From Escherichia phage vB_EcoM_SA20RB: a stretch of 64,000 nt of DNA. The translations under genes were made by a program, and so were the position numbers. The DNA lies in the sequence record OL960581; one strand, 5' to 3'. The notes beneath the pieces were generated by a model. The model was not told the DNA's origin. It did not search any database and saw only the letters and a list, made by a program, of their open reading frames with translations. Below are positions 19,254 to 38,509 of the stretch, piece by piece; the first letter of the stretch is position 1, and each line of letters starts with the position of its first letter.

Positions 19254-19283
19254 ATAGTACCACAGAGGAACAGTCTTGTAAAC
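19254..19283 (-). promoter_or_regulatory. T4-type early promoter (-35 GTTTAC, -10 TACTAT) with conserved leader ACAACTATCAACTACGGAGGA
   Basis: Minus strand reads GTTTACaagactgttcctctgtggTACTATacaactatcaactacggaggaacacaaaATG. Confidence 0.6.
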
Positions 19284-19285
19284 CA

Positions 19286-19600
19286 CTAAAAGAAACTTCT
19301 TTCACAATTTTTTCCACTGAACCAGGCGCTCACTGCTTTCTTAGTCTCAGGAGCAGTGTTATCCATAAACCATTCAAAGGCAGCCTTTTTATGATTCTGG
19401 AGGGCTTCTCGGGCTTTAATCTGCTCACGGTCTATTAACACTAACATATGAGCCTTTCTTGTCACCATGGGCTTCTTATGATTTTTTGAATACTCCCAGT
19501 CATTTGTCCATCGCATTGTCGTTGCGAACTGAAATACTGCTTCTTTAATTTTAGTTTCGTAAATTTCACGAGCCTTTGAGTATAACATCATTACCTCCAT
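19286..19600 (-). CDS. Hypothetical protein
   Basis: ORF-track 104 aa. Confidence 0.5.
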   Translation of the reverse strand: MEVMMLYSKAREIYETKIKEAVFQFATTMRWTNDWEYSKNHKKPMVTRKAHMLVLIDREQIKAREALQNHKKAAFEWFMDNTAPETKKAVSAWFSGKNCERSFF

Positions 19601-19689
19601 TCACCAGTTTAATTCTAGTCATCTTTTTAATGGCAGTCCATATAATCTATTTCTGAACTGCCTTTTTGTCATAGAAGTCCTCTTATGAA

Positions 19690-20658
19690 TTATTTCAGAA
19701 GAGTAACCTCAGCAATTTCTTCCCAACCGTTTTTGTCGGTCATAATAAAGTCAGCAAGATAAAGAGCAGTACGCAGTGAAACATTGCGTAAACGGTTAAC
19801 ATTAACTTTCATCCATGATAATGCTTTATAAGTTTCTTCATCAGAAAGACCGCGCTTTTGCATCATGTCAGTTGAAAGAATAACATCTTCAACCCTGACC
19901 ATAATTTCTTCATTAGTATGAACACCCAAATCCAAATAAACCGAGCGGGACACTAATGCTTGTAAATGTGGAGCAAGTTTAGTACCACGGTCTAATTCGC
20001 GGTCAATGTCAACGTTTGTGATAAAAACAATCGTTCCTTTAAATTCAAACTCACGCTCAATGCCTTTTTCTTCTAAGTAAGAAGACGCAGTGCTCCAGCA
20101 GACTTTACGGGTCTCTCCGGTGTCCAGAGCGGCTTTTAGAAGATTAAGAATGTCCATATCAGAGAAAACATCCACATCATCAATCAAAAGGACAGAATTC
20201 TCTTCACGATTATTCCAAAGCTGCTCATAAAGACCAATACCAGAGATTTTACCATTAATGCTTTTATATTCAATGTATCCAATATCATTTGCTTTATTTA
20301 AAGCTTTATCTAAAGAATACGTTTTACCAATACCTGCTGCACCAGAGATAATCAATGAACGAATATTTCCATTAATAATACCATTCGTCATCATTCCCAT
20401 AACATTAAATCTTTTATTAATGCGGGTTTTCATATCTTCATACGATTCTTTAACTTCTTCAACCTTTACACCATCATATGAAATATCTGATTTGTAAACC
20501 CAAACACCGCGACGTTTACCGTCAATTTCAACAAAAACTTTACCATCTCCTTGTGCATCTACCGGAGCATTATCTGGGAACCATTCGCCTAAGAGCTCAA
20601 AAGTTCCAGAGATTTCTTTACCGAAGTAGATACCCTTATTGATAGTTACAGTTTTCAT
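19690..20658 (-). CDS. P-loop NTPase (Walker A GAAGIGKT, Walker B VLLIDDVD), nrdC.10 position
   Basis: ORF 19690..20670 begins at TTG; the first ATG at 20658 (MKTVTINKG) follows a GGAG SD; Walker motifs read directly from the translation. Confidence 0.65.
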   Translation of the reverse strand: MKTVTINKGIYFGKEISGTFELLGEWFPDNAPVDAQGDGKVFVEIDGKRRGVWVYKSDISYDGVKVEEVKESYEDMKTRINKRFNVMGMMTNGIINGNIRSLIISGAAGIGKTYSLDKALNKANDIGYIEYKSINGKISGIGLYEQLWNNREENSVLLIDDVDVFSDMDILNLLKAALDTGETRKVCWSTASSYLEEKGIEREFEFKGTIVFITNVDIDRELDRGTKLAPHLQALVSRSVYLDLGVHTNEEIMVRVEDVILSTDMMQKRGLSDEETYKALSWMKVNVNRLRNVSLRTALYLADFIMTDKNGWEEIAEVTLLK

Positions 20659-20692
20659 TTTATTCTCCAAATCCGTATCAGTTGATAGTTGT

Positions 20693-20722
20693 ATAGTACC
20701 ATAAAGCTTTATGCTTGTAAAC
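20693..20722 (-). promoter_or_regulatory. T4-type early promoter (-35 GTTTAC, -10 TACTAT) with conserved leader
   Basis: Minus strand reads aaaattttttcacaaaacgGTTTACaagcataaagctttatggTACTATacaactatcaac. Confidence 0.6.
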
Positions 20723-20742
20723 CGTTTTGTGAAAAAATTTTG

Positions 20743-20771
20743 AAATAAAAAAGGGAGCCCGAAGGCTCCCT
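20743..20771 (-). terminator. Rho-independent terminator (GGGAGCC-UUCG-GGCUCCC plus U6)
   Basis: Perfect stem, tetraloop, then TTTTTTATTT on the minus strand immediately 3' of the ORF ending at 20773. Confidence 0.7.
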
Positions 20772-20772
20772 A

Positions 20773-21783
20773 TCATTTATAATAACTTCGGTGGTTTTCA
20801 AGATAAACCCTCTCAAGGAAGTCATCCCAGAAACCCATGTCTACTTTTTGTTGCATACCGTTCTTAGAAGCTTCAATAGATGCTGCTTCTACTTGATCGA
20901 CCACATCTTCCAAAAACTCTTGAACAGTTTTAAATGGATGTTTACCAAGCTTCACGTCGAGAATAAATGGAGCGTCTTGGAGTGGATAGACTAAGTCACC
21001 AGTTTTGTAAATTTCCAATAGTTGGAGTCCACCACGACAAGCATGACTCAGAGCTTTCCAGTCAATACCCTCATTCGCTTCAGCCTTACGAGCACGTTCA
21101 CCATATTCAGCATCAAGTTTATTCAAAGACTGCTTAAGCTCAATAAGAGAAAGAGTTGTCTGATATTTACGACCCAACACAGTGTAGAACGTTTGTGGGC
21201 CTGTTTTCTCATGATTATGGAATACCCATTCACAGAATTCGTTCTCTGGAAGACGATGCTTAATATCTTCAACTTTAGTTCGACGCTGCTTAATGGAACC
21301 GTCTTCTTGGTAATCAACCCATTGCTCAGGGATTTGATTAACTACTTTCAATACATCACGCAATGCGGCCAAACGAGAACCCTTGACACCATATTTAGAA
21401 GCTTGCTTGCGGACATATCCTAAATAAGATTTCATGTTAGTTGTATAAAAACGAGAACGATTGTCTTGAATAAACTTCCACACATCAGGTAAATCAGATT
21501 TAACCACTAGTTCAGGTGGAGTGTGAAGCATATCTAATGCTACGGTTTCACCATCTGCTGCTAATTTAAAGAAATATTTAAGACTGTATAGTTCATGGTC
21601 AATATCATCTTTAGTGTTTTTAGATGATGTGTTGTTGGTATTTTTACTCATATGCTCTTTAACATTTCCGATAAGAATATCACGAGCAGGAGGAACAAAG
21701 ATTTCTTTAAAATCTACATCAGATTCTGGGGTAGAAGTTCCATAAAGATGACTACCAAAATAACTTTTCATTACTGTTTTCAT
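20773..21783 (-). CDS. Nucleotidyltransferase-fold protein (GS-X10-DVD signature), nrdC.11 position
   Basis: 336 aa; N-terminal FGSHLYGTSTPESDVDF matches the minimal nucleotidyltransferase pattern hG[GS]-x(9-13)-Dh[DE]h. Confidence 0.6.
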   Translation of the reverse strand: MKTVMKSYFGSHLYGTSTPESDVDFKEIFVPPARDILIGNVKEHMSKNTNNTSSKNTKDDIDHELYSLKYFFKLAADGETVALDMLHTPPELVVKSDLPDVWKFIQDNRSRFYTTNMKSYLGYVRKQASKYGVKGSRLAALRDVLKVVNQIPEQWVDYQEDGSIKQRRTKVEDIKHRLPENEFCEWVFHNHEKTGPQTFYTVLGRKYQTTLSLIELKQSLNKLDAEYGERARKAEANEGIDWKALSHACRGGLQLLEIYKTGDLVYPLQDAPFILDVKLGKHPFKTVQEFLEDVVDQVEAASIEASKNGMQQKVDMGFWDDFLERVYLENHRSYYK

Positions 21784-22226
21784 TTAACATCCTTAAATTC
21801 TATCATAGGGCAGATTTTAGATTTACTAGCTTTAAGGTATTCAACGATTACACTATTAGGATGTTCAATACCGTTTTCTTCGTCTTGTTGACGCTTCCAC
21901 GCTCTATCATACCTGACTCCTTCCCATAAACCTGAAATCTTAGCTACAATATATGCTATACCTACTGCAATAACGACAATCGTAGCAAATATCAGTACAC
22001 CAAATACGGTTCCGCCTGCGTGTAGAAGCCAGAATCCTGTAACACCAAATTGACTTAAAATAGCTTGTCCTACCACCCAACTACCTAATAGCCCCGATGT
22101 GCAAATAACACCGATAACTAAGAACGTCCACGCCATTTTCCAGAAATATTTACACAAAGAATTCGGACGCTGCCAGTAAAAGAAATCATGCATACGAACG
22201 TGCCAAGAGTTTTCATTAATAATCAT
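21780..22226 (-). CDS. Integral membrane protein
   Basis: 148 aa; long hydrophobic core; 4-nt overlap with the upstream gene. Confidence 0.55.
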   Translation of the reverse strand: MIINENSWHVRMHDFFYWQRPNSLCKYFWKMAWTFLVIGVICTSGLLGSWVVGQAILSQFGVTGFWLLHAGGTVFGVLIFATIVVIAVGIAYIVAKISGLWEGVRYDRAWKRQQDEENGIEHPNSVIVEYLKASKSKICPMIEFKDVK

Positions 22227-22228
22227 AA

Positions 22229-22750
22229 TTATCCTTTCATTGAAGGTGTAACAGTTGTTAAATACTTAATCATAGCTTCAGCTTCTGATTTTGATAATGA
22301 AATTTCTCCATTGTTTTGACGAATAGAAATAAAATCCGGATGACGGTCACCACCAGCTTTTAAAATACACATATAAGTATCAGTTTCATCTTCAATATCT
22401 GAAATGATTGAAGCAGTTCCGCATGAATGCGGTTTTTGATAAATCAATGCAGCTTTTCTTCCACCGTTTGACTGTTCATAAACTTTTAACACATCAAACA
22501 AATCACTTCTTTTATCAATAGCTAAGATGTTGTTTTCATCTTCAATGTTAAATCCTTCGGATACTTCATAAAGTGTCACCCATAAATCACCTATATCGAT
22601 AGTAGCATTTCCTTTTCCACGACTTTCAAGAGTATGACAAATTTTCTTGATTTCGTCATAACTCATTTTAATAATATCATCTCCTTGAATAAGGAAGATG
22701 TCATTTTTAAATTCAACACGAATTAAACCGCTTTCACTTGAAATAAACAT
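22229..22750 (-). CDS. Hypothetical protein, paralog pair member 1
   Basis: 173 aa; C-terminus SKSEAEAMIKYLTTVTPSM parallels TKDEAIALKTYLDSVIPTM of the next ORF. Confidence 0.55.
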   Translation of the reverse strand: MFISSESGLIRVEFKNDIFLIQGDDIIKMSYDEIKKICHTLESRGKGNATIDIGDLWVTLYEVSEGFNIEDENNILAIDKRSDLFDVLKVYEQSNGGRKAALIYQKPHSCGTASIISDIEDETDTYMCILKAGGDRHPDFISIRQNNGEISLSKSEAEAMIKYLTTVTPSMKG

Positions 22751-22756
22751 ATTTCC

Positions 22757-23314
22757 TCACTTTGAAATCATAGTTGGAATGACAGAATCAAGATAAGTCT
22801 TTAGCGCAATGGCTTCGTCTTTGGTAAATGTGACAATATGTGATCGAAAATCATCAATTTGACGAATAGTTAAGACATCTCCCTCTTCATAACATTTTGA
22901 TACATTTAAAAGAGTTTCATCATTCTGATTGCAATCGTTAGTAATAATAGCATTGCAATTTTTGAGCCATTTTAAACTATGTTTTCTTTCATTAGAATAA
23001 TAAAAATATTTAATCTTAGCTATAAAACTATCCCAATGAATAACTGATAAACACATTGACTCACTTTTAATATTAAATCCTGGGCATGAAGAATAAAAAT
23101 GAATTTTGTGCTCATCATTGATGCTTACTATTTTATCAGTATAAGGATATTCAATTTGGGTTAAATGAATGATTTCACTAGGCGTAAAATACAGCATATC
23201 GTCTTCTTGCGTCAAACGATACATGTTATTTACTTTTTCTATAGCCAATTCACCAAAAAGCGGACTAACTTCTAATACTAATCGTTTCATATTGATTCTC
23301 TTCGACTCATTCAC
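22757..23314 (-). CDS. Hypothetical protein, paralog pair member 2
   Basis: 185 aa; shared C-terminal motif with 22229..22750. Confidence 0.55.
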   Translation of the reverse strand: MNESKRINMKRLVLEVSPLFGELAIEKVNNMYRLTQEDDMLYFTPSEIIHLTQIEYPYTDKIVSINDEHKIHFYSSCPGFNIKSESMCLSVIHWDSFIAKIKYFYYSNERKHSLKWLKNCNAIITNDCNQNDETLLNVSKCYEEGDVLTIRQIDDFRSHIVTFTKDEAIALKTYLDSVIPTMISK

Positions 23315-23449
23315 AATTACATACTCCTTTGAATAATATCAATAATGTTGTTCACCAGATTATAAGTAAACATCGGGTGATAATATTGAATCATCACATA
23401 CACAACAAACAAAACTTTCATTCTCTTCTCCTTGGCAGTTGACAAGATT

Positions 23450-23479
23450 ACTATACCATAACCTTGCCAACTTGTAAAC
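23450..23479 (-). promoter_or_regulatory. T4-type early promoter (-35 GTTTAC, -10 TATAGT)
   Basis: Minus strand reads GTTTACaagttggcaaggttatggTATAGT. Confidence 0.5.
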
Positions 23480-23481
23480 CA

Positions 23482-23655
23482 TTAAATGACGTTTTCAATA
23501 AAATTCTGAAGCTTTGTGTGAGCATCAACCATGATTTTCATTTCTTCCTTTGCGAAAGCTGTACCTCTTTCACGAGAAGAATACTCATAGTCAGAAACTG
23601 CATTAGCATATTCTTCAATTAGCTTCATTAAAAACATCTGCTTTTCAGTTTTCAT
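23482..23655 (-). CDS. Small hypothetical protein (about 57 aa, below the ORF-track cut-off)
   Basis: Hand translation MKTEKQMFLMKLIEEYANAVSDYEY... Confidence 0.3.
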   Translation of the reverse strand: MKTEKQMFLMKLIEEYANAVSDYEYSSRERGTAFAKEEMKIMVDAHTKLQNFIENVI

Positions 23656-23839
23656 TATTCCACCTAATCATTTCAAGATATTGAACTAACTTAGCTTTAG
23701 ATTTATCCAAATCCTTTTTAGCTGCTTCTATACCATCGTATGAATATCCTTCACAATGCTCAACTGCCAATTGGTATGAATCTATTTCAATATCACGTGC
23801 TAATTTAATGATTTTTTCAAACTGTTCACGTGTTAGCAT
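23645..23839 (-). CDS. Hypothetical protein
   Basis: ORF-track 64 aa. Confidence 0.45.
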   Translation of the reverse strand: MLTREQFEKIIKLARDIEIDSYQLAVEHCEGYSYDGIEAAKKDLDKSKAKLVQYLEMIRWNNEN

Positions 23840-23841
23840 AC

Positions 23842-24045
23842 TTAAACTCTCGTATTATGATCGATAATTTCATCAAGAAACATATCTAAAGCTTCTACAG
23901 CATTATCAACTTTAGCTTCAAGTTCTTCAGCGCCTTTATTTGCAATGCCTGACGAAAACCAAGCAAAGTCACTAAGTTCCTCATCTGCTTTGCGAATTAA
24001 AGCTACCAATTCTTTAATTTTATCTGCTTGTTCGATACTAATCAT
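23842..24045 (-). CDS. Hypothetical protein (trimmed to the internal Met)
   Basis: ORF 23842..24081; start at 24045 removes the overlap with the upstream gene (TAATG junction). Confidence 0.4.
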   Translation of the reverse strand: MISIEQADKIKELVALIRKADEELSDFAWFSSGIANKGAEELEAKVDNAVEALDMFLDEIIDHNTRV

Positions 24046-24233
24046 TATTCCACCACATATGAAAGAGAGAATATTGCACACGCCATATGAGTTGCAGCTT
24101 CATCACACATATCATAACGTTTCTTAAGAAGTTTTTCAAGTTCTTCACTGGTAACTTCATCCATGTTGACGAAAAAATCACCATTAATGATGACGTAGAT
24201 ATTTCCTTCTTGATTAAGTGCTTCAATTTTCAT
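24045..24233 (-). CDS. Hypothetical protein (trimmed to the first ATG downstream of the promoter)
   Basis: ORF 24045..24278; the promoter at 24262-24291 lies inside the long ORF; ATG 24233 follows AAGAGGAGAA. Confidence 0.45.
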
Positions 24234-24261
24234 GATGTTCTCCTCTTTATCTGATGGTTGT

Positions 24262-24291
24262 ATAGTATCACAGCTCAAATGGAAAGTAAAC
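24262..24291 (-). promoter_or_regulatory. T4-type early promoter (-35 GTTTAC, -10 TACTAT)
   Basis: Minus strand reads GTTTACtttccatttgagctgtgaTACTATacaaccatcagataaagaggagaac. Confidence 0.6.
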
Positions 24292-24297
24292 CGGTAA

Positions 24298-24325
24298 AAT
24301 GAAAAAAGTCTCCCGAAGGAGACTA
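24298..24325 (-). terminator. Rho-independent terminator (AGUCUCC-UUCG-GGAGACU plus U-run)
   Basis: Hairpin followed by TTTTTTCATTTT on the minus strand, 3' of the ORF ending at 24329. Confidence 0.65.
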
Positions 24326-24328
24326 ATG

Positions 24329-24715
24329 TTATTCGAGGGAAAGAAGATATTTACTTTGATAAAACATTCCAGTAATATCATCTATCGTGCTTTGAATGGC
24401 TGGAGGCATTTCTTTATAAATGCTGTTAGATTGGTCTAGTATGCGATCAATCATTTTAATTGTGTCGGTAGGAAGTTTACTAGCATCTGGAATTGAAGGT
24501 GTGTATTTTCTACCAGAATACCCCAAATATTGCTCACCAAATTTATCAATCAAATCTGGTAACTCAGAGAAAATAAAATCGTATGCTTTATGTCTAGCAT
24601 AACTTTTAGTTTCAAAATGCGCAGAATGAAAATAAGCTTGTGCAGCCATTAATAAACCTAAGTATTCATCTGCCTTTGAAGGTTTTCCACTTTGTGAAAA
24701 GTCGCTGAATTTCAT
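24329..24715 (-). CDS. Hypothetical protein (rI.-1 position)
   Basis: ORF-track 128 aa; 4-nt overlap with the rI stop. Confidence 0.55.
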
Positions 24716-25005
24716 TCAGTCTCCAATTTAATGTTCATAATTCTAGCGTATGATTGTGCCATCTCCGCGCCTCGCTCTATACATTCAAAATCGGAAGAGC
24801 ACGGGTCATTTTTATAGGTCGTTCGCATAAAACTATAGAACTGTTCAGATGATTCTACGCTTTTATTTTCAAAAAGCATATAAACATGTCTAATGCCAGA
24901 TTCCATAAATTTATCAAAATGAGGATCGACATTTGCTTCAATCGGTGGAGATAAAGCAAACGCTAATCCTAGCATGGCAAATAGTGCCGTTGCTTTTAAG
25001 GCCAT
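24712..25005 (-). CDS. rI: Lysis inhibition regulator rI (membrane-anchored periplasmic protein)
   Basis: 97 aa; N-terminal signal-anchor MALKATALFAMLGLAFALS; length and position match T4 rI. Confidence 0.8.
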   Translation of the reverse strand: MALKATALFAMLGLAFALSPPIEANVDPHFDKFMESGIRHVYMLFENKSVESSEQFYSFMRTTYKNDPCSSDFECIERGAEMAQSYARIMNIKLETE

Positions 25006-25017
25006 AAAGGCCTCCTA

Positions 25018-25230
25018 TCATTTTTGTCCTGTATTTACTTTATGCCGATGCACGGCCTTAACTTTATCAAGGTATTTTTCAAAATTTCGCAATCTAGTAT
25101 AGTCTGCCGGAGATTGGTTGAGTGATACTTCTCGACGCAAAGCTGAAATGATATTTCCAACTTCCCTACGAATTTCATCTAATTGAAGAACAGTAAGATT
25201 GCGAAGTTGCTTTTCAGTTAATTGTAGCAT
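25018..25230 (-). CDS. Hypothetical protein (rI.1 position)
   Basis: ORF-track 70 aa. Confidence 0.5.
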
Positions 25231-25272
25231 ATATACCCCTTTAGTTAGATAAACCTATTTATAACTTTTGCA

Positions 25273-25854
25273 CTAACCGAGCTTTTTAGTTAATTCATTC
25301 CAATGTTTTCTGCACAAAGAAACATAAATTTCATCACCAATACAGATTTGATTACCTTCTTTAACTGGTGTTCCATCTTCCATTAATCGAGCTGTCATAA
25401 TAGCTTTTTTACCACAATGACAAACTGCTTTTAGTTCAATAAGTTTATCTGCAATCGCCAAAAGTTCTTTAGAACCTTCAAATAATTTTCCAGCGAAATC
25501 AGTCCTTAGTCCATAAGCCATAACAGGAACATTATATGTATCAACAATTCGGCTTAATTGATGCACCTGTTCAGTTTTTAAAAACTGAGCTTCATCTACA
25601 AATACGCAATGAATATCTTTTTGTGCTTCAGCCCATTTATAGAACTCAAAAATATCCATATCATCCGTAATAATATTCGCTTCCTGTTTAATTCCAATGC
25701 GAGAAACGACTTCACAAACAGAATCGCGAGTATCAATAGCAGGTTTAAGAACTAATACACCCATTCCGCGTTCTTTATAATTATGCGCAGCAGTTAAAAG
25801 AGAAGCAGATTTTCCAGCATTCATTGCTGCATAAGTAAAAATTAAACTCGCCAT
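25273..25854 (-). CDS. tk: Thymidine kinase
   Basis: 193 aa; P-loop MNAGKSASLL and C-terminal zinc-ribbon CxxC; length matches T4 Tk. Confidence 0.92.
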   Translation of the reverse strand: MASLIFTYAAMNAGKSASLLTAAHNYKERGMGVLVLKPAIDTRDSVCEVVSRIGIKQEANIITDDMDIFEFYKWAEAQKDIHCVFVDEAQFLKTEQVHQLSRIVDTYNVPVMAYGLRTDFAGKLFEGSKELLAIADKLIELKAVCHCGKKAIMTARLMEDGTPVKEGNQICIGDEIYVSLCRKHWNELTKKLG

Positions 25855-25863
25855 ATCACCTTC

Positions 25864-26049
25864 TTAAAGCGTATTCACATAAGCTATTAATTCGTTTTCT
25901 TTCTTATCAAACCGGTCAGCAAATTCTTCTTGCTGTTCGGGAGATAGCGGGCCGTATTCATCATAAAAGGTGTTTGCTTCTGTATGCTCATCTAGAAGTT
26001 CATGGATAAGCTCAAACAATTTATCTTTTTGTTCTTTACTCAGACTCAT
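25864..26049 (-). CDS. Hypothetical acidic protein (tk.1 position)
   Basis: ORF-track 61 aa. Confidence 0.5.
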   Translation of the reverse strand: MSLSKEQKDKLFELIHELLDEHTEANTFYDEYGPLSPEQQEEFADRFDKKENELIAYVNTL

Positions 26050-27964: not shown

Positions 27965-27971
27965 GCTTACC

Positions 27972-28433
27972 TCATTGAGTTTTAATTACGGCTTTAGAAG
28001 CCTTTCCTGGTAAACGACGACTGTTGATAATTGCCATCCTACATTGAAGTGACGGGTCTTTGAACTTCGCGTTAGGTTTACAAACTGTAAATCCAAGCCA
28101 AAGATTTCCATCTGTGATTTCTAAACGTCCAGGACGATATTCAACCCCATCAATAAAATCCTCGTCAATGTCAGGACGCGGAGGCATACTCAGGAATTCA
28201 TTAACTTCTAAAACATGGTCTTTTATTTTGTGGAATAATTCAAAAACATATGTCTCATCAATCTCCCGTTGAATTGCACGATCAAGAAGATGTTGAGAAT
28301 ATTTTAGATGAAACGATGAGACCCCTGCTGCTTTTGATGCCTCACGAATCTCATTGTTAATTTGACGAAACTCCGACTCAAAGTGACGACGAAGTTTATT
28401 TCGACGGATAAAAACTTCTGTATTGATAGTCAT
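27972..28433 (-). CDS. regB: Site-specific endoribonuclease RegB
   Basis: 153 aa; N-terminus MTINTEVFIRRNKLRRHFESEF; length and position match T4 RegB; early promoter directly upstream. Confidence 0.85.
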   Translation of the reverse strand: MTINTEVFIRRNKLRRHFESEFRQINNEIREASKAAGVSSFHLKYSQHLLDRAIQREIDETYVFELFHKIKDHVLEVNEFLSMPPRPDIDEDFIDGVEYRPGRLEITDGNLWLGFTVCKPNAKFKDPSLQCRMAIINSRRLPGKASKAVIKTQ

Positions 28434-28460
28434 GTTATTCTCCTCTTAACTGATAGAAAA

Positions 28461-28490
28461 ATTATACCACAGTCAAGAGGAAAAGTAAAC
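28461..28490 (-). promoter_or_regulatory. T4-type early promoter (-35 GTTTAC, -10 TATAAT) for regB
   Basis: Minus strand reads GTTTACttttcctcttgactgtggTATAATttttctatcagttaagaggagaataacATG. Confidence 0.65.
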
Positions 28491-30631: not shown

Positions 30632-31105
30632 TTATTTGAACGATTTAACGTACTGAATAGAACCTTTACTATTCACGAAAGCGATTTTACCATTTTTATT
30701 ATACATGGTAGCAGTACGCTGATAGCCATAAGTTTGCTTACCAGATTGATAACCAACTAATGCAAAATTATCTTCACCCATTTTATTCTGTTTAGCACGA
30801 ATGCGTTCATGACCATGTGCCATAAGAACCTTAGCATCACCAGTTGCAATGGATCTACGAGTTTTTTCATCTTCAACTGTATTAACAAAGTCGTCAAATG
30901 AATCAAATTTAGCATGAGATTTATTATACAGTTTTCCATCTACTGCATAATTATATCCCTGTACATCCATCTCAACTTCTGTACCATCATCCAATACAGC
31001 AGTGATTTTCTGTCCTTTTTTAAATTTCAAAAGATCAGTAAAAGATTCAGCAATAATTTGAGAATTAATAGCTGCTTCAGTAATAAATTCTTGATATGTT
31101 TTCAT
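30632..31105 (-). CDS. Internal-protein-like protein with capsid-targeting-sequence-like N-terminus
   Basis: 157 aa; N-terminus MKTYQEFITEAAINS resembles the ipI leader MKTFKEFTST; occupies the T4 ipII/ipIII locus next to e; early promoter upstream. Confidence 0.55.
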   Translation of the reverse strand: MKTYQEFITEAAINSQIIAESFTDLLKFKKGQKITAVLDDGTEVEMDVQGYNYAVDGKLYNKSHAKFDSFDDFVNTVEDEKTRRSIATGDAKVLMAHGHERIRAKQNKMGEDNFALVGYQSGKQTYGYQRTATMYNKNGKIAFVNSKGSIQYVKSFK

Positions 31106-31159
31106 GTGTTTCCTTTAAATATTTTAATTAGTAATCTATTTATTTAAGTAACTGTGAAT

Positions 31160-31189
31160 ATACTATCACAGTTTTAGGAGAAAGTAAAC
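31160..31189 (-). promoter_or_regulatory. T4-type early promoter (-35 GTTTAC, -10 TAGTAT)
   Basis: Minus strand reads GTTTACtttctcctaaaactgtgaTAGTAT. Confidence 0.5.
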
Positions 31190-31193
31190 AACT

Positions 31194-32162
<969 letters not shown>

Positions 32163-32181
<19 letters not shown>

Positions 32182-32525
32182 TCAATCACAAACTCTTTCA
32201 TTGATTCATTTTCAATATAAGACATGTAGCTATTATATTCTTTTAATTGTATTTTGTAATCCTTTTTTCTTTGCCAATTTATTTTAAAATTATCATAATG
32301 AAAATATAACATGGTACCAAAGAATGAAAATGATGAAATCGCTATAGTATAGTGAAGTTCACTCCAAACTTCTGTTATATTTACTGTGCCGTCGATGTTT
32401 AAAATAAGACAGTCAATTAACAATCCAAAAAGACTACCCGCAAGAGCTGCAGCCAACGCCACAGCAAAAATTAAAAATGACTCAGGAAGAGAATATTTGG
32501 CTTTATTTAGTTTTGGCTTTTGCAT
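32163..32525 (-). CDS. Membrane protein (e.2 position)
   Basis: 120 aa; hydrophobic segment FLIFAVALAAALAGSLFGLLIDCLIL. Confidence 0.5.
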
Positions 32526-32920
32526 CGTGATTCCTTAACAAATTTCATAATTTCATTAAATTCATACATATCAAGTTTAAGCTGATGTTCCTTTTTAATC
32601 TTTTTACACTGAGCTTTCCATTCACGTACACGTTTACGATAATGTCTTCCTTGATACCAGTATCCTACCCAATTTACGGGTACTAATAAAAGTGGAACTA
32701 TTAATGGAAGAATTAGCATTAACACAAGTATTTCGCCAGAATCAATATCAGTCATAACATCTAAAACACCTCCAATAATCAGTAGAATTACAAATGATAT
32801 GAGTATAACAGGACCTATTAATACATCAGTAGAAATTATCTGGCGCTTTAATTCATACTTTAAGGGTTTACTTGGAAGATACATTGATGGCTTTGACATA
32901 TTCTCTACATTCCTTAACAA
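32507..32920 (-). CDS. Membrane protein (e.3 position)
   Basis: 137 aa; two hydrophobic segments. Confidence 0.5.
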   Translation of the reverse strand: MLRNVENMSKPSMYLPSKPLKYELKRQIISTDVLIGPVILISFVILLIIGGVLDVMTDIDSGEILVLMLILPLIVPLLLVPVNWVGYWYQGRHYRKRVREWKAQCKKIKKEHQLKLDMYEFNEIMKFVKESRCKSQN

Positions 32921-33479
32921 ATTTTTCTAGTAATAAATCGCTTTCAAAATTAGGATTTTCCACGAATTTATCAAAAAGATCATCAACAATGGTTAAAATA
33001 TTCTTTTTGCTAAGAATACGTTTATTTTCATGCTTCGTTTCAGAATCAACTATAAGAGTAAAGAAATATTTCTTTCCCTGAAATTTTACCGTAGTATCAA
33101 TATAAAATAAATTTGACTTTTGTAAATTACGTTTAAACCATGCGTCACTTAAACTATAAACGCCAAGATAATCATAATCGTCGTTTAAATAACAAACTGT
33201 CCATTCAGGAGAAATGAAATCAGTAAATTCAACATCAAAATCACACGTCAATGAATGAATTGATTCAATACTTTTAATGAGTATTCCAGGACGTATTAAA
33301 GACTTTTTACCTCTGGAAAATCTTCCAGAAAGACTTTCATTAGTTTCATATGAAGAACCCCAATAATAATTACGTCCTTCTGCCATACGTTTAAGAGCAT
33401 TTAATAATTGGTCTGGAACATCAACCTGTCTTTGGAACTCTTCAAACATTGAATTGAAATCAATTTGCATTCTTCTCAT
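32868..33479 (-). CDS. Hypothetical protein (e.4 position)
   Basis: ORF-track 203 aa. Confidence 0.55.
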   Translation of the reverse strand: MRRMQIDFNSMFEEFQRQVDVPDQLLNALKRMAEGRNYYWGSSYETNESLSGRFSRGKKSLIRPGILIKSIESIHSLTCDFDVEFTDFISPEWTVCYLNDDYDYLGVYSLSDAWFKRNLQKSNLFYIDTTVKFQGKKYFFTLIVDSETKHENKRILSKKNILTIVDDLFDKFVENPNFESDLLLEKFVKECREYVKAINVSSK

Positions 33480-33499
33480 TCCTATTTACTCCAAGTAAT

Positions 33500-33515
33500 A
33501 GGGGCCGAAGCCCCT
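33500..33515 (-). other. Hairpin AGGGGC-CGAA-GCCCCT (stability element or weak terminator)
   Basis: Perfect GC stem with tetraloop; few following U residues. Confidence 0.4.
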
Positions 33516-33520
33516 TATCA

Positions 33521-34114
33521 TTATTTCAGAGAATTAATGTATTCCTGAACATCGGCAGAGGTAGTTTCAACCCCAGAAATATTACCATTAAAGGTTTCAA
33601 CTCGAGCAAGAGTATCTTCAATATCAACTTTAGTCAGTGCTGCAATTTCAACTACATCATCAGCAGTACTAATTCCGAGGGCATTTGCGGCGCGAGTTTC
33701 ACGGATATATTCCAATTTAACTGCAAGTTCTTGGCGAGCATCATCCAATTCAACTACTTTCTTGGCGATTTCAATTCGCATTTCAGCATAACCATCAGCT
33801 TTAGTAGTCAACTGCTCAGCTGTTCGACGATATAGTAAACCAAGTTTAGCATGCATTGTTACATCTTGACCTTCGGAAAGGAGCTTGCGAATTTCACGCT
33901 CTTTTGATTCGGCCTGTTTATTCTTTTCAATAACAAGTTCACGAATACGTTTTTCTTCATTAATAGATTTAATAGAAGCAGTTTTTAGATCTTTAATTTT
34001 ATCAAGCAATTTTGCTGCTGCGGCAGTATACTGCTCTTCAACAGATAGATTTTTAGCCATAGCAGAACCAAGTTTAGTGCGAATAAAATCAACAATTTTC
34101 TTCAGTGTGTTCAT
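33521..34114 (-). CDS. Long alpha-helical coiled-coil protein (e.5 position), weakly PspA/IM30-like
   Basis: 197 aa; charged heptad-rich composition. Confidence 0.5.
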
Positions 34115-34160
34115 AGTATTTCCTTAGGTTGATTAAGATTTAAAATCCATGAGAGTATTA

Positions 34161-34334
34161 TACTCCGGATAGTTTGTAAACTATTTTAACATCGCCTTTT
34201 GCTGCTTTATAACCTTCAGCCCAAGATACAACCGAGTTTTTATCCGAAGATTCAAATTCTGGCATTGGGCTTTCGCCAATGTTCACGCAGTATGTTTCTT
34301 CATTTTCGTCAAACCAAATAATTAAAGTAGTCAT
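34161..34334 (-). CDS. Small hypothetical protein (about 57 aa; e.6 position)
   Basis: Hand translation MTTLIIWFDENEETYCVNIGESPMPEFESSDKNSVVSWAEGYKAAKGDVKIVYKLSGV. Confidence 0.35.
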
Positions 34335-34403
34335 TTATTTCTCCGTTTCTGTATTTGTTTTTGATAAGTCTATAATAACACCGTCCTTGGTGTTTGTACA
34401 CAA

Positions 34404-34679
34404 TTATTTCATATTATTGAAATATTCTTCTGCGATTTCGTCGTTATCATGGTAAACTTTAGAAGACAGTTTAACATAACTTTCAGCAGTGAACATGTTA
34501 ATCACAACCTTTACAGTATACCACTGACCATCTTCATTACCCATTACTGCGTAAGTTTCAAACATCGGATGGTCAGGACCGATAACTTTAATATCATTCA
34601 CTGTACGACCGAAATCTTCTGAAACGCATTTCATAAAGAAGTTGAACAGTTCGCCGTAATTATCCATTTCATTCTCCAA
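34404..34679 (-). CDS. Hypothetical protein (e.7 position)
   Basis: ORF-track 91 aa; early promoter and conserved leader upstream. Confidence 0.55.
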   Translation of the reverse strand: MENEMDNYGELFNFFMKCVSEDFGRTVNDIKVIGPDHPMFETYAVMGNEDGQWYTVKVVINMFTAESYVKLSSKVYHDNDEIAEEYFNNMK

Positions 34680-34710
34680 GTTATTTTCTGTATCAGTAGT
34701 TGATAGTTGT

Positions 34711-34740
34711 ATAGTACCATGGAAGAACGGGGATGTAAAC
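34711..34740 (-). promoter_or_regulatory. T4-type early promoter (-35 GTTTAC, -10 TACTAT) with conserved leader
   Basis: Minus strand reads aaaaaattttttcacaaaactGTTTACatccccgttcttccatggTACTATacaactatcaactac. Confidence 0.6.
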
Positions 34741-34872
34741 AGTTTTGTGAAAAAATTTTTTAAAAAGTTTTAGGGAATTCTAGGACAGGGAGGGGAAATC
34801 AAAGGATAGGATAATATATTATAAAGGGTATAAACTAAATGATGCCTAGAGAGGCCCGGAAAGGCCTAGATA

Positions 34873-34903
34873 CCAAAAAGCCCCAACCTTTTGGTCGGGG
34901 CTA
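34873..34903 (-). terminator. Rho-independent terminator (AGCCCCGACC-AAAA-GGUUGGGGCU plus U-run)
   Basis: Stem-loop followed by TTTTTGG on the minus strand, directly 3' of the ORF ending at 34910. Confidence 0.7.
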
Positions 34904-34909
34904 AGAATG

Positions 34910-35383
34910 TTATTTGATTTGTTTAGCAGACCAAATGCGATCTTTAATAATTTTTTGGATGTCTTCAACATACTCTAGGTCATGAGCATGTGGATTATCT
35001 TTGAAACTATGAGCTCGCGCAAGTTTCTGGCCTTCGGTCTTAATTATCAAAAGTTCTTTAAGAATTGCTTCATACCTAGAGATAATTCCTTTAGCAATAT
35101 TTTTTTCTTGTGCTGCTTTAGGGTCAGCCTTAGGAGCAGGTTTACCTGAAGCCTTTGCAAAAGCAGCTCCAGTAGCAACTAAACTTTTCCAGGCCATACT
35201 AACTGCATTCCCTGTAAATCCTTCGGCTTTCATATCACGAGCAAATTGGAATCGTGATTCATCGGAAGCATCTTTATAGGAATATTTACCCGCGGCAATG
35301 GCTGCTTTTGCGACAGCTTGAATTTCGGTGCTAGATGCTTCATTTAACGCCGCTTCATTTAAAAATTGAGCATATGATTTCAT
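34910..35383 (-). CDS. Late-expressed protein with capsid-targeting-sequence-like N-terminus (e.8 position)
   Basis: 157 aa; N-terminus MKSYAQFLNEAALNEAS parallels MKTYQEFITEAAINS of 30632..31105; exact late promoter TATAAATA upstream; flanked by terminators. Confidence 0.6.
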   Translation of the reverse strand: MKSYAQFLNEAALNEASSTEIQAVAKAAIAAGKYSYKDASDESRFQFARDMKAEGFTGNAVSMAWKSLVATGAAFAKASGKPAPKADPKAAQEKNIAKGIISRYEAILKELLIIKTEGQKLARAHSFKDNPHAHDLEYVEDIQKIIKDRIWSAKQIK

Positions 35384-35419
35384 CTTATTTCCTGTTTTAA
35401 TTCGTGGTTTTAATATACT

Positions 35420-35427
35420 TATTTATA
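35420..35427 (-). promoter_or_regulatory. Late promoter TATAAATA
   Basis: Exact TATAAATA on the minus strand about 37 nt upstream of the ATG at 35383. Confidence 0.6.
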
Positions 35428-35458
35428 CTAAAAAGCCCCAACCTTTCGGTCGGGGCTA
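35426..35458 (-). terminator. Rho-independent terminator (AGCCCCGACC-GAAA-GGUUGGGGCU plus U5) ending the stable-RNA/tRNA transcript
   Basis: Stem-loop followed by TTTTT on the minus strand. Confidence 0.7.
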
Positions 35459-35461
35459 AGC

Positions 35462-35770
35462 CTTGCGGCAACCTTGTCGGGGTTCCACCTGCTAAGGCAA
35501 GTGTTTGTACGAAACGCCGGGATTCGAACCCGGTTATTAAGCAGTTGACGCTACTCAATATTTTTAAAAGGCCATATCTCGACCATATCCGAACGTTCCG
35601 TCAAAAACGCTACTCGGCTTACGGCAAAGATATTTCCTCGAATCGATAATTCGGTGCGCCGTTTCTGCTGTGATGTAAGAGGGCATCAATAAACGCAAAG
35701 ATTATTAACGCAATTCCTTACTCAGGGAACATCAGTCCGACGACTTACCGGTAGCGACCCGGTTTCTCAT
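35462..35770 (-). ncRNA. Small stable RNA region (T4 rnaC/rnaD-like), boundaries not resolved
   Basis: Non-coding stretch between tRNA-Arg and the terminator; contains a tRNA-like T-arm CCGGGTTCGAATCCCGG (minus strand, near 35517-35533). Confidence 0.4.
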
Positions 35771-35771
35771 T

Positions 35772-35848
35772 TGGTCGAGGCAGAAGGATTCTAACCTTCA
35801 ACCAACGGATTAGAAATCCGTTGCTCTATACAATTGAGCTATGCCCCG
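35772..35848 (-). tRNA. tRNA-Arg (anticodon UCU), CCA encoded
   Basis: Hand fold: acceptor CGGGGCA/UGCCUCG, D stem GCUC/GAGC, anticodon stem ACGGA/UCCGU with loop UUUCUAA, T stem GAAGG/CCUUC. Confidence 0.8.
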
Positions 35849-35851
35849 TAA

Positions 35852-36517
35852 TTAAAATTTCATTTTTCGACCTTTAAACCATCCTTCTGGAATTGGGTCA
35901 GTTTTCTTAATACGTTTAGAAACTTTTTCATCTAATGAATGAATCCACATCATACCAAATTGGGAATTCTTTTCACCCTGTTGATGTTTATTTCTGGCGT
36001 GAGATTCTTTCATTTTATTAATAGTTTCAGGAGTATGGGTCTTACCCAAGAAAGATTTAGTATTTAAAAATTTCTCTCTATACTTAGGATTATCCCAAAG
36101 CTGTTTAAACCTTTCTGAACCCATTTTACGATATTTTTCTTTAAGGTCTGGGTCGTTCTCAAATCTGGTTTTAAAAGCAGCAGCCCCTTTTAAGGAAGCT
36201 TCTTTCTTTTTATCCAAATATTCTTTAGTGTTTAAATGGTCCCAACCACCTTCACCACCTAATTTCAAATTATAAACATCAAGGCGCTTTAAAAACTCTT
36301 CAGTCACAATATTCTTTTCTGACTCAAACATAGAGGTTTTATCGTCAAAGAACTCTAATATTTCTTTAGAGAAATTTTCTATACCATACTTGTCTTGGGC
36401 TCTTTTTAATAATTTACCAGAACCCATATATCCATCATCTAAATTTTCGGTAGAATGAGCGCCTATATAGATTTTATTATTAATTTTATTTGTTATTTTA
36501 TAAGTGTAATGGAACAT
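35852..36517 (-). CDS. segB: GIY-YIG homing endonuclease SegB
   Basis: 221 aa; N-terminal YTYKITNKINNKIYIGAHST GIY-YIG motif; lies inside the tRNA cluster as T4 segB does. Confidence 0.85.
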   Translation of the reverse strand: MFHYTYKITNKINNKIYIGAHSTENLDDGYMGSGKLLKRAQDKYGIENFSKEILEFFDDKTSMFESEKNIVTEEFLKRLDVYNLKLGGEGGWDHLNTKEYLDKKKEASLKGAAAFKTRFENDPDLKEKYRKMGSERFKQLWDNPKYREKFLNTKSFLGKTHTPETINKMKESHARNKHQQGEKNSQFGMMWIHSLDEKVSKRIKKTDPIPEGWFKGRKMKF

Positions 36518-36558
36518 AAATATCTCCTATTTCTAAGAGTATTTATGTTCCCAAAATA

Positions 36559-36630
36559 TGGCCCTGGGTGGAATTGAACCACCATCTGGCGATTATGAGT
36601 CGCTTGCTTGAACCTTCCAGCTACAGGGCC
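36559..36630 (-). tRNA. tRNA with CAU anticodon (Ile by T4 synteny; Met-like anticodon)
   Basis: Hand fold: acceptor GGCCCUG/CAGGGCC, anticodon loop CUCAUAA, T arm GGUGG-UUCAAUU-CCACC. Confidence 0.75.
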
Positions 36631-36636
36631 TTGATA

Positions 36637-36709
36637 TGCTGATTGACGGAATCGAACCGCCGACCTTCTCATTACAAGTGAGTTGCTCTACCTACTGAGC
36701 TAAATCAGC
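36637..36709 (-). tRNA. tRNA-Thr (UGU)
   Basis: Hand fold: acceptor GCUGAUU/AAUCAGC, anticodon stem ACUCA/UGAGA with loop CUUGUAA, T arm GGCGG-UUCGAUU-CCGUC. Confidence 0.8.
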
Positions 36710-36716
36710 GAAATTA

Positions 36717-36803
36717 CGGAGGCGATAGGATTTGAACCTATGAGTCGCCGGAGCGACTGCCGGTTTTCAAGACCGGTGCATTAAACCACTCTGCCACGCC
36801 TCC
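36717..36803 (-). tRNA. tRNA-Ser (UGA), long variable arm
   Basis: Hand fold: acceptor GGAGGCG/CGCCUCC, anticodon loop CUUGAAA, variable arm, T arm UUCAAAU. Confidence 0.8.
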
Positions 36804-36805
36804 AG

Positions 36806-36879
36806 TCTCCGCGGCAGGATTTGAACCTGCGACATTCTGCTCCCAAAGCAGACGCTCTACCAAACTGAGCTACACGGAG
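36806..36879 (-). tRNA. tRNA-Pro (UGG)
   Basis: Hand fold: anticodon stem UCUGC/GCAGA with loop UUUGGGA; T arm GCAGG-UUCAAAU-CCUGC. Confidence 0.8.
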
Positions 36880-36891
36880 TAAATTAAATTT

Positions 36892-36963
<72 letters not shown>

Positions 36964-36969
36964 AAACTT

Positions 36970-37056
36970 TGGTACGAGAAGTGGGACTCGAACCCACAAG
37001 GAAATCATTCCGCAGCATTTTAAGTGCTGTGCCTTTACCAATTTGGCCATTCTCGC
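36970..37056 (-). tRNA. tRNA-Leu (UAA), long variable arm, CCA encoded
   Basis: Hand fold: anticodon stem CAGCA/UGCUG with loop CUUAAAA; T arm GUGGG-UUCGAGU-CCCAC. Confidence 0.8.
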
Positions 37057-37057
37057 G

Positions 37058-37130
37058 CTGGGAATAAAGGACTCGAACCTTTGCATCTAGCAGTCAAAGT
37101 GCTGTGCCTTACCAACTTGGCTAATTCCCA
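37058..37130 (-). tRNA. tRNA-Gln (UUG)
   Basis: Hand fold: acceptor UGGGAAU/AUUCCCA, anticodon loop CUUUGAC, T arm AAAGG-UUCGAGU-CCUUU. Confidence 0.8.
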
Positions 37131-37227
37131 ATTATTAACAAAGGCTCTCAAACAAGAACCCTTGATGATAGATGGTATTAATCAGTGCGGTATGAGTTAA
37201 TAATAACAAATAATTCTTAAAGCATAT

Positions 37228-37521
37228 TTACCATTTATGATAATACATATTTACGATGCATTCAAGACCCAAAGGATTCTTGAAAATATCATATTCAAGA
37301 GGACCTTTTTCTGTTTCAATAAAGAAATCAAAATTTACTGTATTAAATGTACGGTCTTCCTTTACTAATTTAACTTGAGAAGATGAACGGTCAATGTAAA
37401 CCTTTTCAACTTCAAAATATGTTAAAATGCCATAATCATCAATCAAGGCTTTAGCTGCTTCTTGATCATATTTATATCCATTTTCAATGGATGATACTTT
37501 CGCATAAAGAATCATTATCAA
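37228..37521 (-). CDS. Hypothetical protein
   Basis: ORF-track 97 aa; 4-nt overlap with the upstream gene. Confidence 0.5.
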   Translation of the reverse strand: MIMILYAKVSSIENGYKYDQEAAKALIDDYGILTYFEVEKVYIDRSSSQVKLVKEDRTFNTVNFDFFIETEKGPLEYDIFKNPLGLECIVNMYYHKW

Positions 37522-37898
37522 CCTTCATCAACAATAGTGTGCGTATTGGCATTTACAATTTGCCACCAATCAAAGCGATTGGAACCATAATCTGGTTTGT
37601 TTTCATTTTCTTTGATAATGTCACGGAGTTCATCTTCGGTAGCGGCTTTCGCTATTAAATCAGCATATCCACCACGAGGATAATAATTATCACCTGCAAA
37701 AAGTAAAAAGTTTGGTTTAATGTTATTGAACTCTTCAAGAGTAATAACTTTTCCTGACGGTTGAACAATCTCTACATATTTATATCCCAATTTTTGAGCA
37801 GCATCTACTGCTTCAAGCAAAGTATCATGAGCCCATCCAATTTGACAACCTGGCTTTTCAGATGGATTAGCCTGATAATCCGCATACACTTTGTACAT
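37518..37898 (-). CDS. Hypothetical protein (start trimmed to the Met at 37898 to avoid overlap)
   Basis: ORF 37518..37937 (139 aa); internal start MYKVYADYQ. Confidence 0.5.
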   Translation of the reverse strand: MYKVYADYQANPSEKPGCQIGWAHDTLLEAVDAAQKLGYKYVEIVQPSGKVITLEEFNNIKPNFLLFAGDNYYPRGGYADLIAKAATEDELRDIIKENENKPDYGSNRFDWWQIVNANTHTIVDEG

Positions 37899-37899
37899 T

Positions 37900-38085
37900 C
37901 TATTCACCTTTAGAAATTTTATCCATAACGATAGCAATTAAACCAATTAAAAATGCTACTACAAGTGAAAAAACATTTTCTGCTGTAGTCAATAATCCGC
38001 ATATAAATCCAACAAACATTGAAAAACTAAAAGCAGAAGCAGAAATTGCAATAGCAACATTTCGAATTAATTCACAACGTTTCAT
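37900..38085 (-). CDS. Small membrane protein
   Basis: 61 aa, mostly hydrophobic; early promoter upstream. Confidence 0.5.
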   Translation of the reverse strand: MKRCELIRNVAIAISASAFSFSMFVGFICGLLTTAENVFSLVVAFLIGLIAIVMDKISKGE

Positions 38086-38113
38086 TTTATTCTCCTCGGT
38101 AGTTGATAGGGTA

Positions 38114-38143
38114 ATAGTATCACAACTAAAACCCTATGTAAAC
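38114..38143 (-). promoter_or_regulatory. T4-type early promoter (-35 GTTTAC, -10 TACTAT)
   Basis: Minus strand reads aatatttcacaaagttGTTTACatagggttttagttgtgaTACTATtaccctatcaactaccgaggag. Confidence 0.6.
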
Positions 38144-38161
38144 AACTTTGTGAAATATTTA

Positions 38162-38449
38162 TTACAAAAGATTTTTAGCAATAATCTTGAGATGTGCTGC
38201 AGAAATGTGTTTAGCTTTAAACAACGCAGTTTCTTCGGCAGGAGAGATAACGATTGTAGCACCATCCTTTTTAGCAGACCACCCATCACCTAGGTAAACA
38301 GTACCTTTGATTTCTTCGCCATCAACCAAGCTAATCATTGGTTTACCTTCTCGTCCTTTATTTGCTTTAATAACTTCAGAAGTAAGAGTAGCTTCAGTAA
38401 TAGTAGAAACCGGGGTAGTTGTAGAAGTAAATTCTTTGAAAGTTTTCAT
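38162..38449 (-). CDS. ipI: Internal protein I precursor (packaged head protein with capsid-targeting leader)
   Basis: 95 aa as T4 IPI precursor; N-terminus MKTFKEFTSTTTP; adjacent to 57B. Confidence 0.75.
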   Translation of the reverse strand: MKTFKEFTSTTTPVSTITEATLTSEVIKANKGREGKPMISLVDGEEIKGTVYLGDGWSAKKDGATIVISPAEETALFKAKHISAAHLKIIAKNLL

Positions 38450-38479
38450 TTTATTTTCCTAATTAATTTTGATGAGATA

Positions 38480-38509
38480 ATAGTATCACTACCTCATCAA
38501 CGTGTAAAC
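38480..38509 (-). promoter_or_regulatory. T4-type early promoter (-35 GTTTAC, -10 TACTAT) upstream of ipI
   Basis: Minus strand reads taatttcacaaagttGTTTACacgttgatgaggtagtgaTACTAT. Confidence 0.6.

Follow-up and report, generated by a model that had tools for sequence, protein, structure and literature searches.

What are the promoter-like sites that recur on one strand of Escherichia phage vB_EcoM_SA20RB, and why do they resemble one another beyond their promoter hexamers? We analysed 64,000 nucleotides of this phage (sequence record OL960581; hereafter the window), a Tequatrovirus, i.e. a T4-like coliphage, with 96-98.5% identity to many such genomes. An earlier note, made from the letters alone, had described a minus-strand array of promoters which share a downstream leader and an upstream AT-rich element, and had offered two explanations for this sharing: selection on the 5' untranslated region itself, or recent duplication of promoters. 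As we argue below, the sites are very probably classical T4-type early promoters with short leaders, carried on cassettes of about 100 bp that stand before many prereplicative genes. Selection on the leader and homology among the copies are both supported, so that the two alternatives hold together.

A strand-specific array of promoter motifs

Scanning both strands of the whole window for GTTTAC-N15-19-TAYWAT, we find 11 exact matches, all of them on the minus strand and spanning 6.4-38.5 kb. The chance expectation is 0.45 +/- 0.72, which makes for a 24-fold enrichment over shuffles, and at least 11 matches were reached in 0 of 100 dinucleotide-preserving shuffles. GTTTAC and the -10 hexamer are separated by 18 nt (equal to the 17-bp sigma70 spacer) at all nine sites listed in the earlier note, at both intragenic exact matches (6440 and 12984) and at three good one-mismatch sites, 23450 (TATAGT), 31160 (TAGTAT) and 34372 (GTGTAC), which were added by a relaxed scan that returned 27 matches, 24 of them on the minus strand. 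The reported tally of eleven minus-strand promoters is thus right as a number of matches and right in all nine coordinates given, but two of its members (6440 and 12984) are doubtful and the three one-mismatch sites had been missed. A motif-free repeat search between 5 and 42 kb recovers the promoter elements as the three largest direct-repeat families (D1, six copies of 71 nt; D2, three of 68 nt; D3, four of 33 nt), so that the repeats are no artefact of the chosen pattern. The sites precede prereplicative genes and share their orientation; no credible early-promoter site was found in the plus-strand late block at 42-64 kb.

Might the sites instead be middle promoters dependent on MotA/AsiA, or sigma70-like matches arising by chance in A/T-rich DNA (the G+C content of the window is about 34%)? 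A generic sigma70 scan of the 19-39 kb region is uninformative, with 88 sites against 77 +/- 9 in shuffles, so that only the T4-specific motif discriminates, and a nearby site, 39958, does carry a MotA box. However, it is this specific motif that is enriched and confined to one strand; the MotA box TGCTT is found at -30 in none of 12 sites, while GTTTAC or GTGTAC occupies -36 to -31 in all 12; and all sites are orthologous to conserved T4 sites. We give this explanation practically no credence.

Identity with T4 early promoters

Each site aligns to the equivalent T4 position, with 93-99% identity, in an intergenic region upstream of a prereplicative gene. Because T4 records carry no promoter features (NC_000866 and AF158101 have a single 'Pe133295' note), sites were mapped by position and gene. 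The T4 counterpart of 6885 is the nrdH/55.6 intergenic region; those of 16271, 19254, 20693, 23450 and 24262 lie upstream of nrdC.4, nrdC.8, nrdC.10, mobD.2 and mobD.5, respectively; 28461 corresponds to regB, 31160 to the ipIII promoter position, 34711 to e.8, 38114 to trna.4 and 38480 to ipI. The regB promoter has been termed a typical early promoter (PMC3014915), in keeping with the early identity that the note had assigned to the array. The T4 genome contains 29 exact matches to the motif, again all on the minus strand.

When the instances from window and T4 are aligned, as the note had proposed, information content peaks at the -35 and -10 hexamers (the -10 being TAYWAT by construction of the scan) and also, in both genomes, at T-15/G-14 (the TGn motif), at A-40 and T-48, and at a start block made up of C-2, T-1, A+1, T+2, C+3 and A+4, where +1 is defined as the seventh base past the -10 hexamer. 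Among exact matches in the window, T-15 and G-14 are each present in 9 of 11, the exceptions being 6440 and 12984; A-40 is present in all 11 and T-48 in 10, the G+C-rich 12984 being the exception; and GTTTAC stands at -36 to -31 throughout, with GTGTAC in its place at the one-mismatch site 34372. Published descriptions of T4 early promoters comprise UP element, -35, TGn and -10, together with additional consensus regions (PMC2988021; PMC1524935).

This anatomy allows the shared segments to be named. The AT-rich element upstream, aatttcacaaagtt, is the UP element; it is exact at 6885, 38114 and 38480, as described, but at 20693 and 34711 only a variant, ttttttcacaaaac(g/t), is found. The putative 12-nt leader is indeed shared, with ACAACTATCAAC exact at 19254, 20693 and 34711, ACAACCATCAG at 24262 and TACCCTATCAAC at 38114, yet half of it is not transcribed: ACAACT, the discriminator, fills the gap from the -10 to the predicted +1. 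The predicted transcript opens with AUCAAC, where ATCA is the start-site block that is conserved in the T4 early consensus. Further downstream, TAC(C/G)GAGGA, presented as a common component of the leaders, occurs at 19254 and 38114 only. In T4 the ACAACTATCAAC block precedes imm.1, nrdC.8, nrdC.10, e.8, frd.3, motA and ndd.6, and the TACCCTATCAAC variant precedes trna.4, frd.1 and ndd.4. The start codons that had been relocated to 16242, 20658 and 24233 on the strength of promoters inside long open reading frames (ORFs) coincide with the T4-annotated starts of nrdC.4, nrdC.10 and mobD.5.

An unfolded leader ending in a RegB/S1 site

Leaders run over 22-38 nt from the predicted +1 to the ATG and are A-rich. 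Do they act as RNA? One possibility, suggested in the earlier note, is that the leader is a structured RNA (a riboswitch-like fold, a small-RNA target or a ribonuclease III site) controlling early mRNAs, and strong hairpins are indeed present at 38114, 38480 and 31160 (z-scores of -3.1, -4.7 and -2.8). These hairpins, however, are built around the -10 and reach no further than about +1 to +4, which puts them mostly outside the transcript of their own promoter, and complementarity between spacer and discriminator is found in 0 of 12 members of the ACAAC family. Folded from the predicted +1, the transcribed leaders have minimum free energies of 0 to -2.6 kcal/mol and z-scores of +0.4 to +1.5, i.e. 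no excess structure over shuffles, and a search of the whole window against Rfam returns eight tRNA genes only, with no RNA family in any leader. We rejected a structured leader on the grounds that transcribed leaders fold no better than shuffles, and consider it very unlikely to be the explanation.

The search for ribonuclease recognition sites fared better. The 3' end of the leader is a Shine-Dalgarno sequence, mostly GGAG in A-rich context, and resembles the target of the phage endoribonuclease RegB acting with ribosomal protein S1, for which a consensus of GGAGRAYARAA and a T4 consensus of GGAGAAUAAAA have been given (PMC1702504; PMC3014915). GGAGRAYARAA is matched at 11 of 11 positions at 20693 and 38114 (GGAGAATAAAA) and at 10 of 11 at 23450, 28461 and 34711, and of the minus strand's six best matches between 5 and 41.9 kb (~37 kb), five come from these leaders. 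The match is weaker, 8-9 of 11, in leaders 19254, 24262 and 16271, and GGAG is absent from leaders 6885 and 31160; going by sequence, not all cassettes are predicted to make good substrates for RegB. The sites are single-stranded (unfolded) and intergenic, overlap the Shine-Dalgarno sequence and lie directly downstream of early promoters. RegB itself is encoded behind one such promoter, with a GGAG Shine-Dalgarno sequence of its own, and its autoregulation has been reported (PMC3014915). The ribonuclease site in the leader is the known RegB/S1 target, and we predict that it is cleaved here too.

Selection and homology among the copies

If the flanks of these promoters are alike, this need not reflect constraint: the repeats could be neutral young duplicates or gene conversions, with UP element and leader similar merely because the copies are recent. 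To this we can oppose a comparison of nine orthologous promoters between one pair of genomes, the window and T4. The spacer between -35 and -10 differs at 10 of 126 positions (7.9%), a neutral-like rate similar to that at third codon positions of the downstream genes (55/806; 6.8%). Differences are much rarer in the UP block (4/216), in the -35 plus extended -10/-10 (2/144) and in the discriminator/start block together with the leader (5/271; P=0.001 versus third positions, P=0.008 versus spacer), so that, for UP block, discriminator/start block and leader, divergence is slower than at third codon positions by a factor of 3-4. This speaks for purifying selection acting on both core and leader, as the first of the two original explanations would have it.

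What favours a history of duplication, nonetheless, is that copies share even the loosely constrained spacer. In T4, the spacers of 55355 and 146846 agree at 14 of 14 positions, as do those of 27051 and 166778, while 2429 and 50944 have only the spacer in common (13/14). Highly similar pairs of T4 copies are more numerous than under a consensus-preserving column-shuffle null in all segments between -60 and +30, namely the UP block, the spacer, -6 to +12 and +13 to +30 (all P<0.001), but not between -82 and -61; the cassettes are thus mutually homologous over about -60 to +30, alike beyond their shared consensus. Taken by itself, the window shows no significant sharing of spacers, since the partner copies are located in other parts of the genome. 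Moreover, the similarities come in mosaic combinations: T4 27051 matches 166778 in the spacer, 167057 in start block and downstream leader (35/36) and 70667 in the UP block (21/24). Such mosaic similarity indicates that dispersed homologous copies of about 100 bp have recombined with, or converted, one another. Homology, then, stands, in line with the second explanation; neutrality is a different matter, and with the slow divergence of UP block, start block and leader set beside the recurrence of start block and UP block in other phages (see below), we regard recency without constraint as improbable.

For T4 27051 (imm.1) and 167057 (ndd.6), homology continues past the start codon and takes in the first codons; both copies read ATGAAAATCGCT. 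Judging by these sequences and by the internal-protein genes discussed below, a shuffled cassette can apparently include an N-terminal (signal-like) coding segment.

The element is widespread. Using the 106-nt element of promoter 20693 as a query, we obtain 3311 matches in 545 phage records, or 6-7 per T4-like genome, and Yersinia phage fPS-65 has a paralogous copy upstream of motA that its RefSeq record annotates as 'terminator' followed by 'predicted early promoter'. The (C)CTATCAA start block and the UP block recur in JQD51 (Tevenvirinae, in a record without genus), in CLB_P2 (Dhakavirus) and in many IMG/VR contigs. A filtered scan of DK-13 (Gaprivervirus) returned no sites, and the consensus there may differ.

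Stem-loops at and around the promoter

Two kinds of stem-loop accompany these promoters. Promoters 20693 and 24262 each have a canonical terminator immediately upstream (20752-20771 and 24307-24324, respectively); no clear stem-loop is seen at 19254, 16271 or 28461. The second kind comprises the strongly folding hairpins introduced above, which span 38095-38145, 38461-38511 and 31135-31185 (all minus strand) and in which the -35/-10 spacer pairs with the discriminator/+1 segment so that the -10 is placed in the loop. Their arms read ATAGGGT/ACCCTAT at 38114 and AACTGTGA/TCACAGTT at 31160. At 38480, a G.U pair in the window is G-C in T4.

Similar stems of at least 6 bp are found in 8 of 25 T4 early promoters (69938, 70330, 73543, 73910, 133302, 146114, 7186 and 150734), compared to 6% for mismatched partners. 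Among unique instances from IMG/VR, 24 of 94 have a full 5-nt complement where 3.2 are expected, spread over at least five discriminator sequences but never that of the ACAAC family (0/12). Across paralogues, other genera and IMG/VR contigs, the arms covary.

How does this relate to the promoter-early stem-loop (PeSL) elements of T4-like phages? 'Overlapping the -10' is one of five PeSL subclasses in RB49/phi1 (Arbiol et al., PMC2839356); in the PeSL literature we met this subclass as described for RB49/phi1 and did not meet it for T4/PST. Published PST/T4 PeSL stem-loops lie just upstream of the promoter, whereas in the window and T4 about a third of the promoters have their -10 in the loop.

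Start-block and discriminator positions beyond the sigma70 contacts are under constraint. The abrupt shut-off of early promoters and their promoter-specific stimulation by Alt-modified polymerase have both been called unexplained in the T4 literature, and a response of T4 early promoters to ADP-ribosylation by Alt is documented (PMC2988021). The start block C-T-A(+1)-T-C-A, the discriminator and, in about a third of promoters, the hairpin might conceivably form the cis-target of the shut-off at 2-4 min or of stimulation by the Alt-modified polymerase, a suggestion that we consider unlikely but offer nonetheless.

Cassette exchange and gene-content differences from T4

If cassettes recombine, we might see exchanges bounded by promoters when comparing the window with T4, from which it differs at about 17 sites of insertion, deletion or replacement. 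One swap is clean and runs from one promoter to another. At 34132-34403, T4 e.7 is replaced by an unrelated ORF of 58 aa (34158-34334, phrog_5461). At one junction, identity stops at the e.8 stop codon, just before the -35 of one promoter; at the other, it returns just before the e.6 Shine-Dalgarno sequence, downstream of a second promoter, which is degenerate (-10 TACTCT at 34152). A second replacement, at 30632-31105, puts one gene for an alternative internal virion protein (phrog_3155) in place of T4 denV-ipII-ipIII (1441 nt). The new gene keeps the ipIII promoter, its leader and the N-terminal MKTYQEFI; the remainder differs. We detected no orthologue of denV at this locus.

Several points weigh against the picture of functional, recombining early-promoter cassettes drawn so far. 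All +1 positions are predicted from spacing alone; our literature search found no Cappable-seq or other transcription-start-site mapping paper for T4. Of the 11 exact matches, 6440 and 12984 are intragenic, sit in poor context and may be inactive. The selection test covers a single genome pair and nine promoters only. Most breakpoints between window and T4 fall away from promoters, many of them beside homing-endonuclease genes, and the role in recombination is inferred from one clean swap plus the mosaic pattern. Srikant et al., studying T4 toxIN evolution, located recombination at microhomologies of 6-10 bp, not at promoters as such, and so provide no direct support for promoter-mediated exchange.

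Other differences from T4 are recorded here for completeness. A 520-nt insertion at 34905-35424 with an ORF of 157 aa (34910-35383, phrog_2280) is flanked by a duplicated terminator hairpin (34879-34902 and 35434-35457; repeat 94% identical). The homing-endonuclease genes mobD, mobB and segC are absent, as is T4 e.2 (21785-22731; 3602-3625; 32163-32192; 44770), mobD being replaced by ORFs at 21780-22226 (membrane-protein family phrog_944) and 22229-22750 (phrog_1502).

Individual sites

All features below are on the minus strand. At 6885-6914, upstream of the gene 55.6 orthologue, the core runs from -35 GTTTAC to -10 TATTAT, with UP element aatttcacaaagtt at 6915-6928, predicted +1 at 6878 and the ATG at 6854. 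The nrdC.4 core (16271-16300) overlaps the 3' end of nrdC.5 and has its predicted +1 at 16264 and the ATG at 16242. A full element upstream of nrdC.8 (19225-19307) contains the UP region, the core at 19254-19283, discriminator ACAACT, a predicted +1 A at 19247, leader AUCAACUACGGAGGAACACAAA and the ATG at 19225. The terminator-promoter cassette upstream of nrdC.10 (20658-20771) is complete: after its terminator come a T-run, an UP region, the core (20693-20722), the predicted +1 (20686) and RegB/S1 site GGAGAATAAAA at 20658-20668, with the ATG at 20658. Upstream of mobD.2, the core at 23450-23479 reads GTTTAC ... TGGTATAGT and is followed by a leader with GGAGAAGAGAA and the ATG at 23421. Another terminator-promoter cassette, at 24233-24324 upstream of mobD.5, has its core at 24262-24291, predicted +1 at 24255 and the ATG at 24233.

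The early promoter and leader of regB occupy 28433-28490 (core 28461-28490; ATG 28433), with the Shine-Dalgarno/RegB autoregulatory site GGAGAATAACA at 28433-28443; the gene itself (27972-28433) encodes the endoribonuclease cleaving GGAG of early leaders, 152/153 identical to T4 RegB. At 31160-31189, upstream of the alternative internal-protein gene and orthologous to the T4 ipIII promoter position, the core is GTTTAC ... TAGTAT. The core at 34372-34401 (GTGTAC ... TATTAT) forms the upstream edge of the cassette replacing T4 e.7, whose 58-aa ORF has its ATG at 34334. Full elements are found upstream of e.8 (34667-34764; UP region ttttttcacaaaact, core 34711-34740, predicted +1 34704, GGAGAATGAAA at 34667-34677, ATG 34667), of trna.4 (38085-38157; UP element aatttcacaaagtt, core 38114-38143, predicted +1 38107, GGAGAATAAAA at 38085-38095, ATG 38085) and of ipI (38449-38523; UP element aatttcacaaagtt, core 38480-38509, the strong -10-enclosing hairpin, predicted +1 38473, ATG 38449). 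The two intragenic exact matches are candidate promoters: 6440-6469, within gene 55.5 and upstream of 55.4, is without TGn in register, and 12984-13013, within gene 49.1 and upstream of pin, is G+C-rich upstream and likewise without TGn.

Beyond the array, the orthologue of gene 1 (dNMP kinase) is preceded at 39958-39987 by a middle promoter with a MotA box (aaTGCTTca) and, after it, TATAAT; a GTTTAA resembling an early -35 overlaps this promoter.

How the element would work, and what it resembles

Drawing on the T4 literature, we can sketch how these cassettes would operate. After DNA injection, host sigma70 polymerase would bind via several simultaneous contacts, with the alpha C-terminal domains on the A/T-rich UP element (with its A-tract around -40 and its T-tract around -47), sigma region 4 on GTTTAC, region 3 on TGn and region 2 on TAYWAT. 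Transcription would start at the conserved A, 7 nt past the -10, inside C-T-A(+1)-T-C-A, and the leader would permit immediate loading of ribosomes. Later, RegB and S1 would cut GG^AG and thereby inactivate early mRNAs. In the window, terminators or hairpins adjoining or overlapping the promoters separate neighbouring cassettes, and it may also be at these cassettes that genes recombine and are shuffled, as the PeSL model proposes.

T4 early promoters were reportedly characterised by Liebig & Ruger in 1989 and by Wilkens & Ruger. The sites described here have GTTTAC, TGn, TAnnnT and an A-rich UP stretch at -40 to -44 in common with T4 early promoters (Hinton 2010, PMC2988021; Nolan et al. 2006, PMC1524935). 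Nothing substantive differs: there are a few single-base changes, mostly in the spacer, one GTGTAC -35, and two -10s of TATAGT or TAGTAT. The composite of stem-loop, AT-rich block, promoter, Shine-Dalgarno sequence and ATG is that of PeSLs (Arbiol et al. 2010, PMC2839356; Comeau et al. 2014, PMC4122927), for which a TTTACW-N17-TAYWAT consensus has been published in PST/T4 (PMC2839356; PMC4122927). Like the window cassettes, PeSL cassettes recur through hyperplastic regions, and the e.7 replacement looks like cassette exchange bounded by such elements; the production of mini-circles by recombination between flanking copies is a further feature of PeSLs. The 3' part of the leader carries the same site as RegB/S1 targets of T4 (Durand et al. 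2006, PMC1702504; Uzan & Miller 2010, PMC3014915). E. coli rrnB P1-type UP/extended -10 promoters, T7 A1 and lambda PL likewise combine contacts by the alpha C-terminal domain and by sigma regions 4, 3 and 2, and share the aim of competing for host polymerase; the T4 type is unlike them in having GTTTAC rather than TTGACA as its -35, and a conserved start-site block.

The early promoter/PeSL cassette with its RegB-targeted leader is therefore an already known feature, and current understanding of T4 is unchanged by these findings. For annotation, the elements mark the starts of transcription units, fix start codons and flag leaders expected to be inactivated by RegB. For evolution, they mark likely points of gene-cassette exchange and help explain differences among near-identical phages used in therapy or typing.

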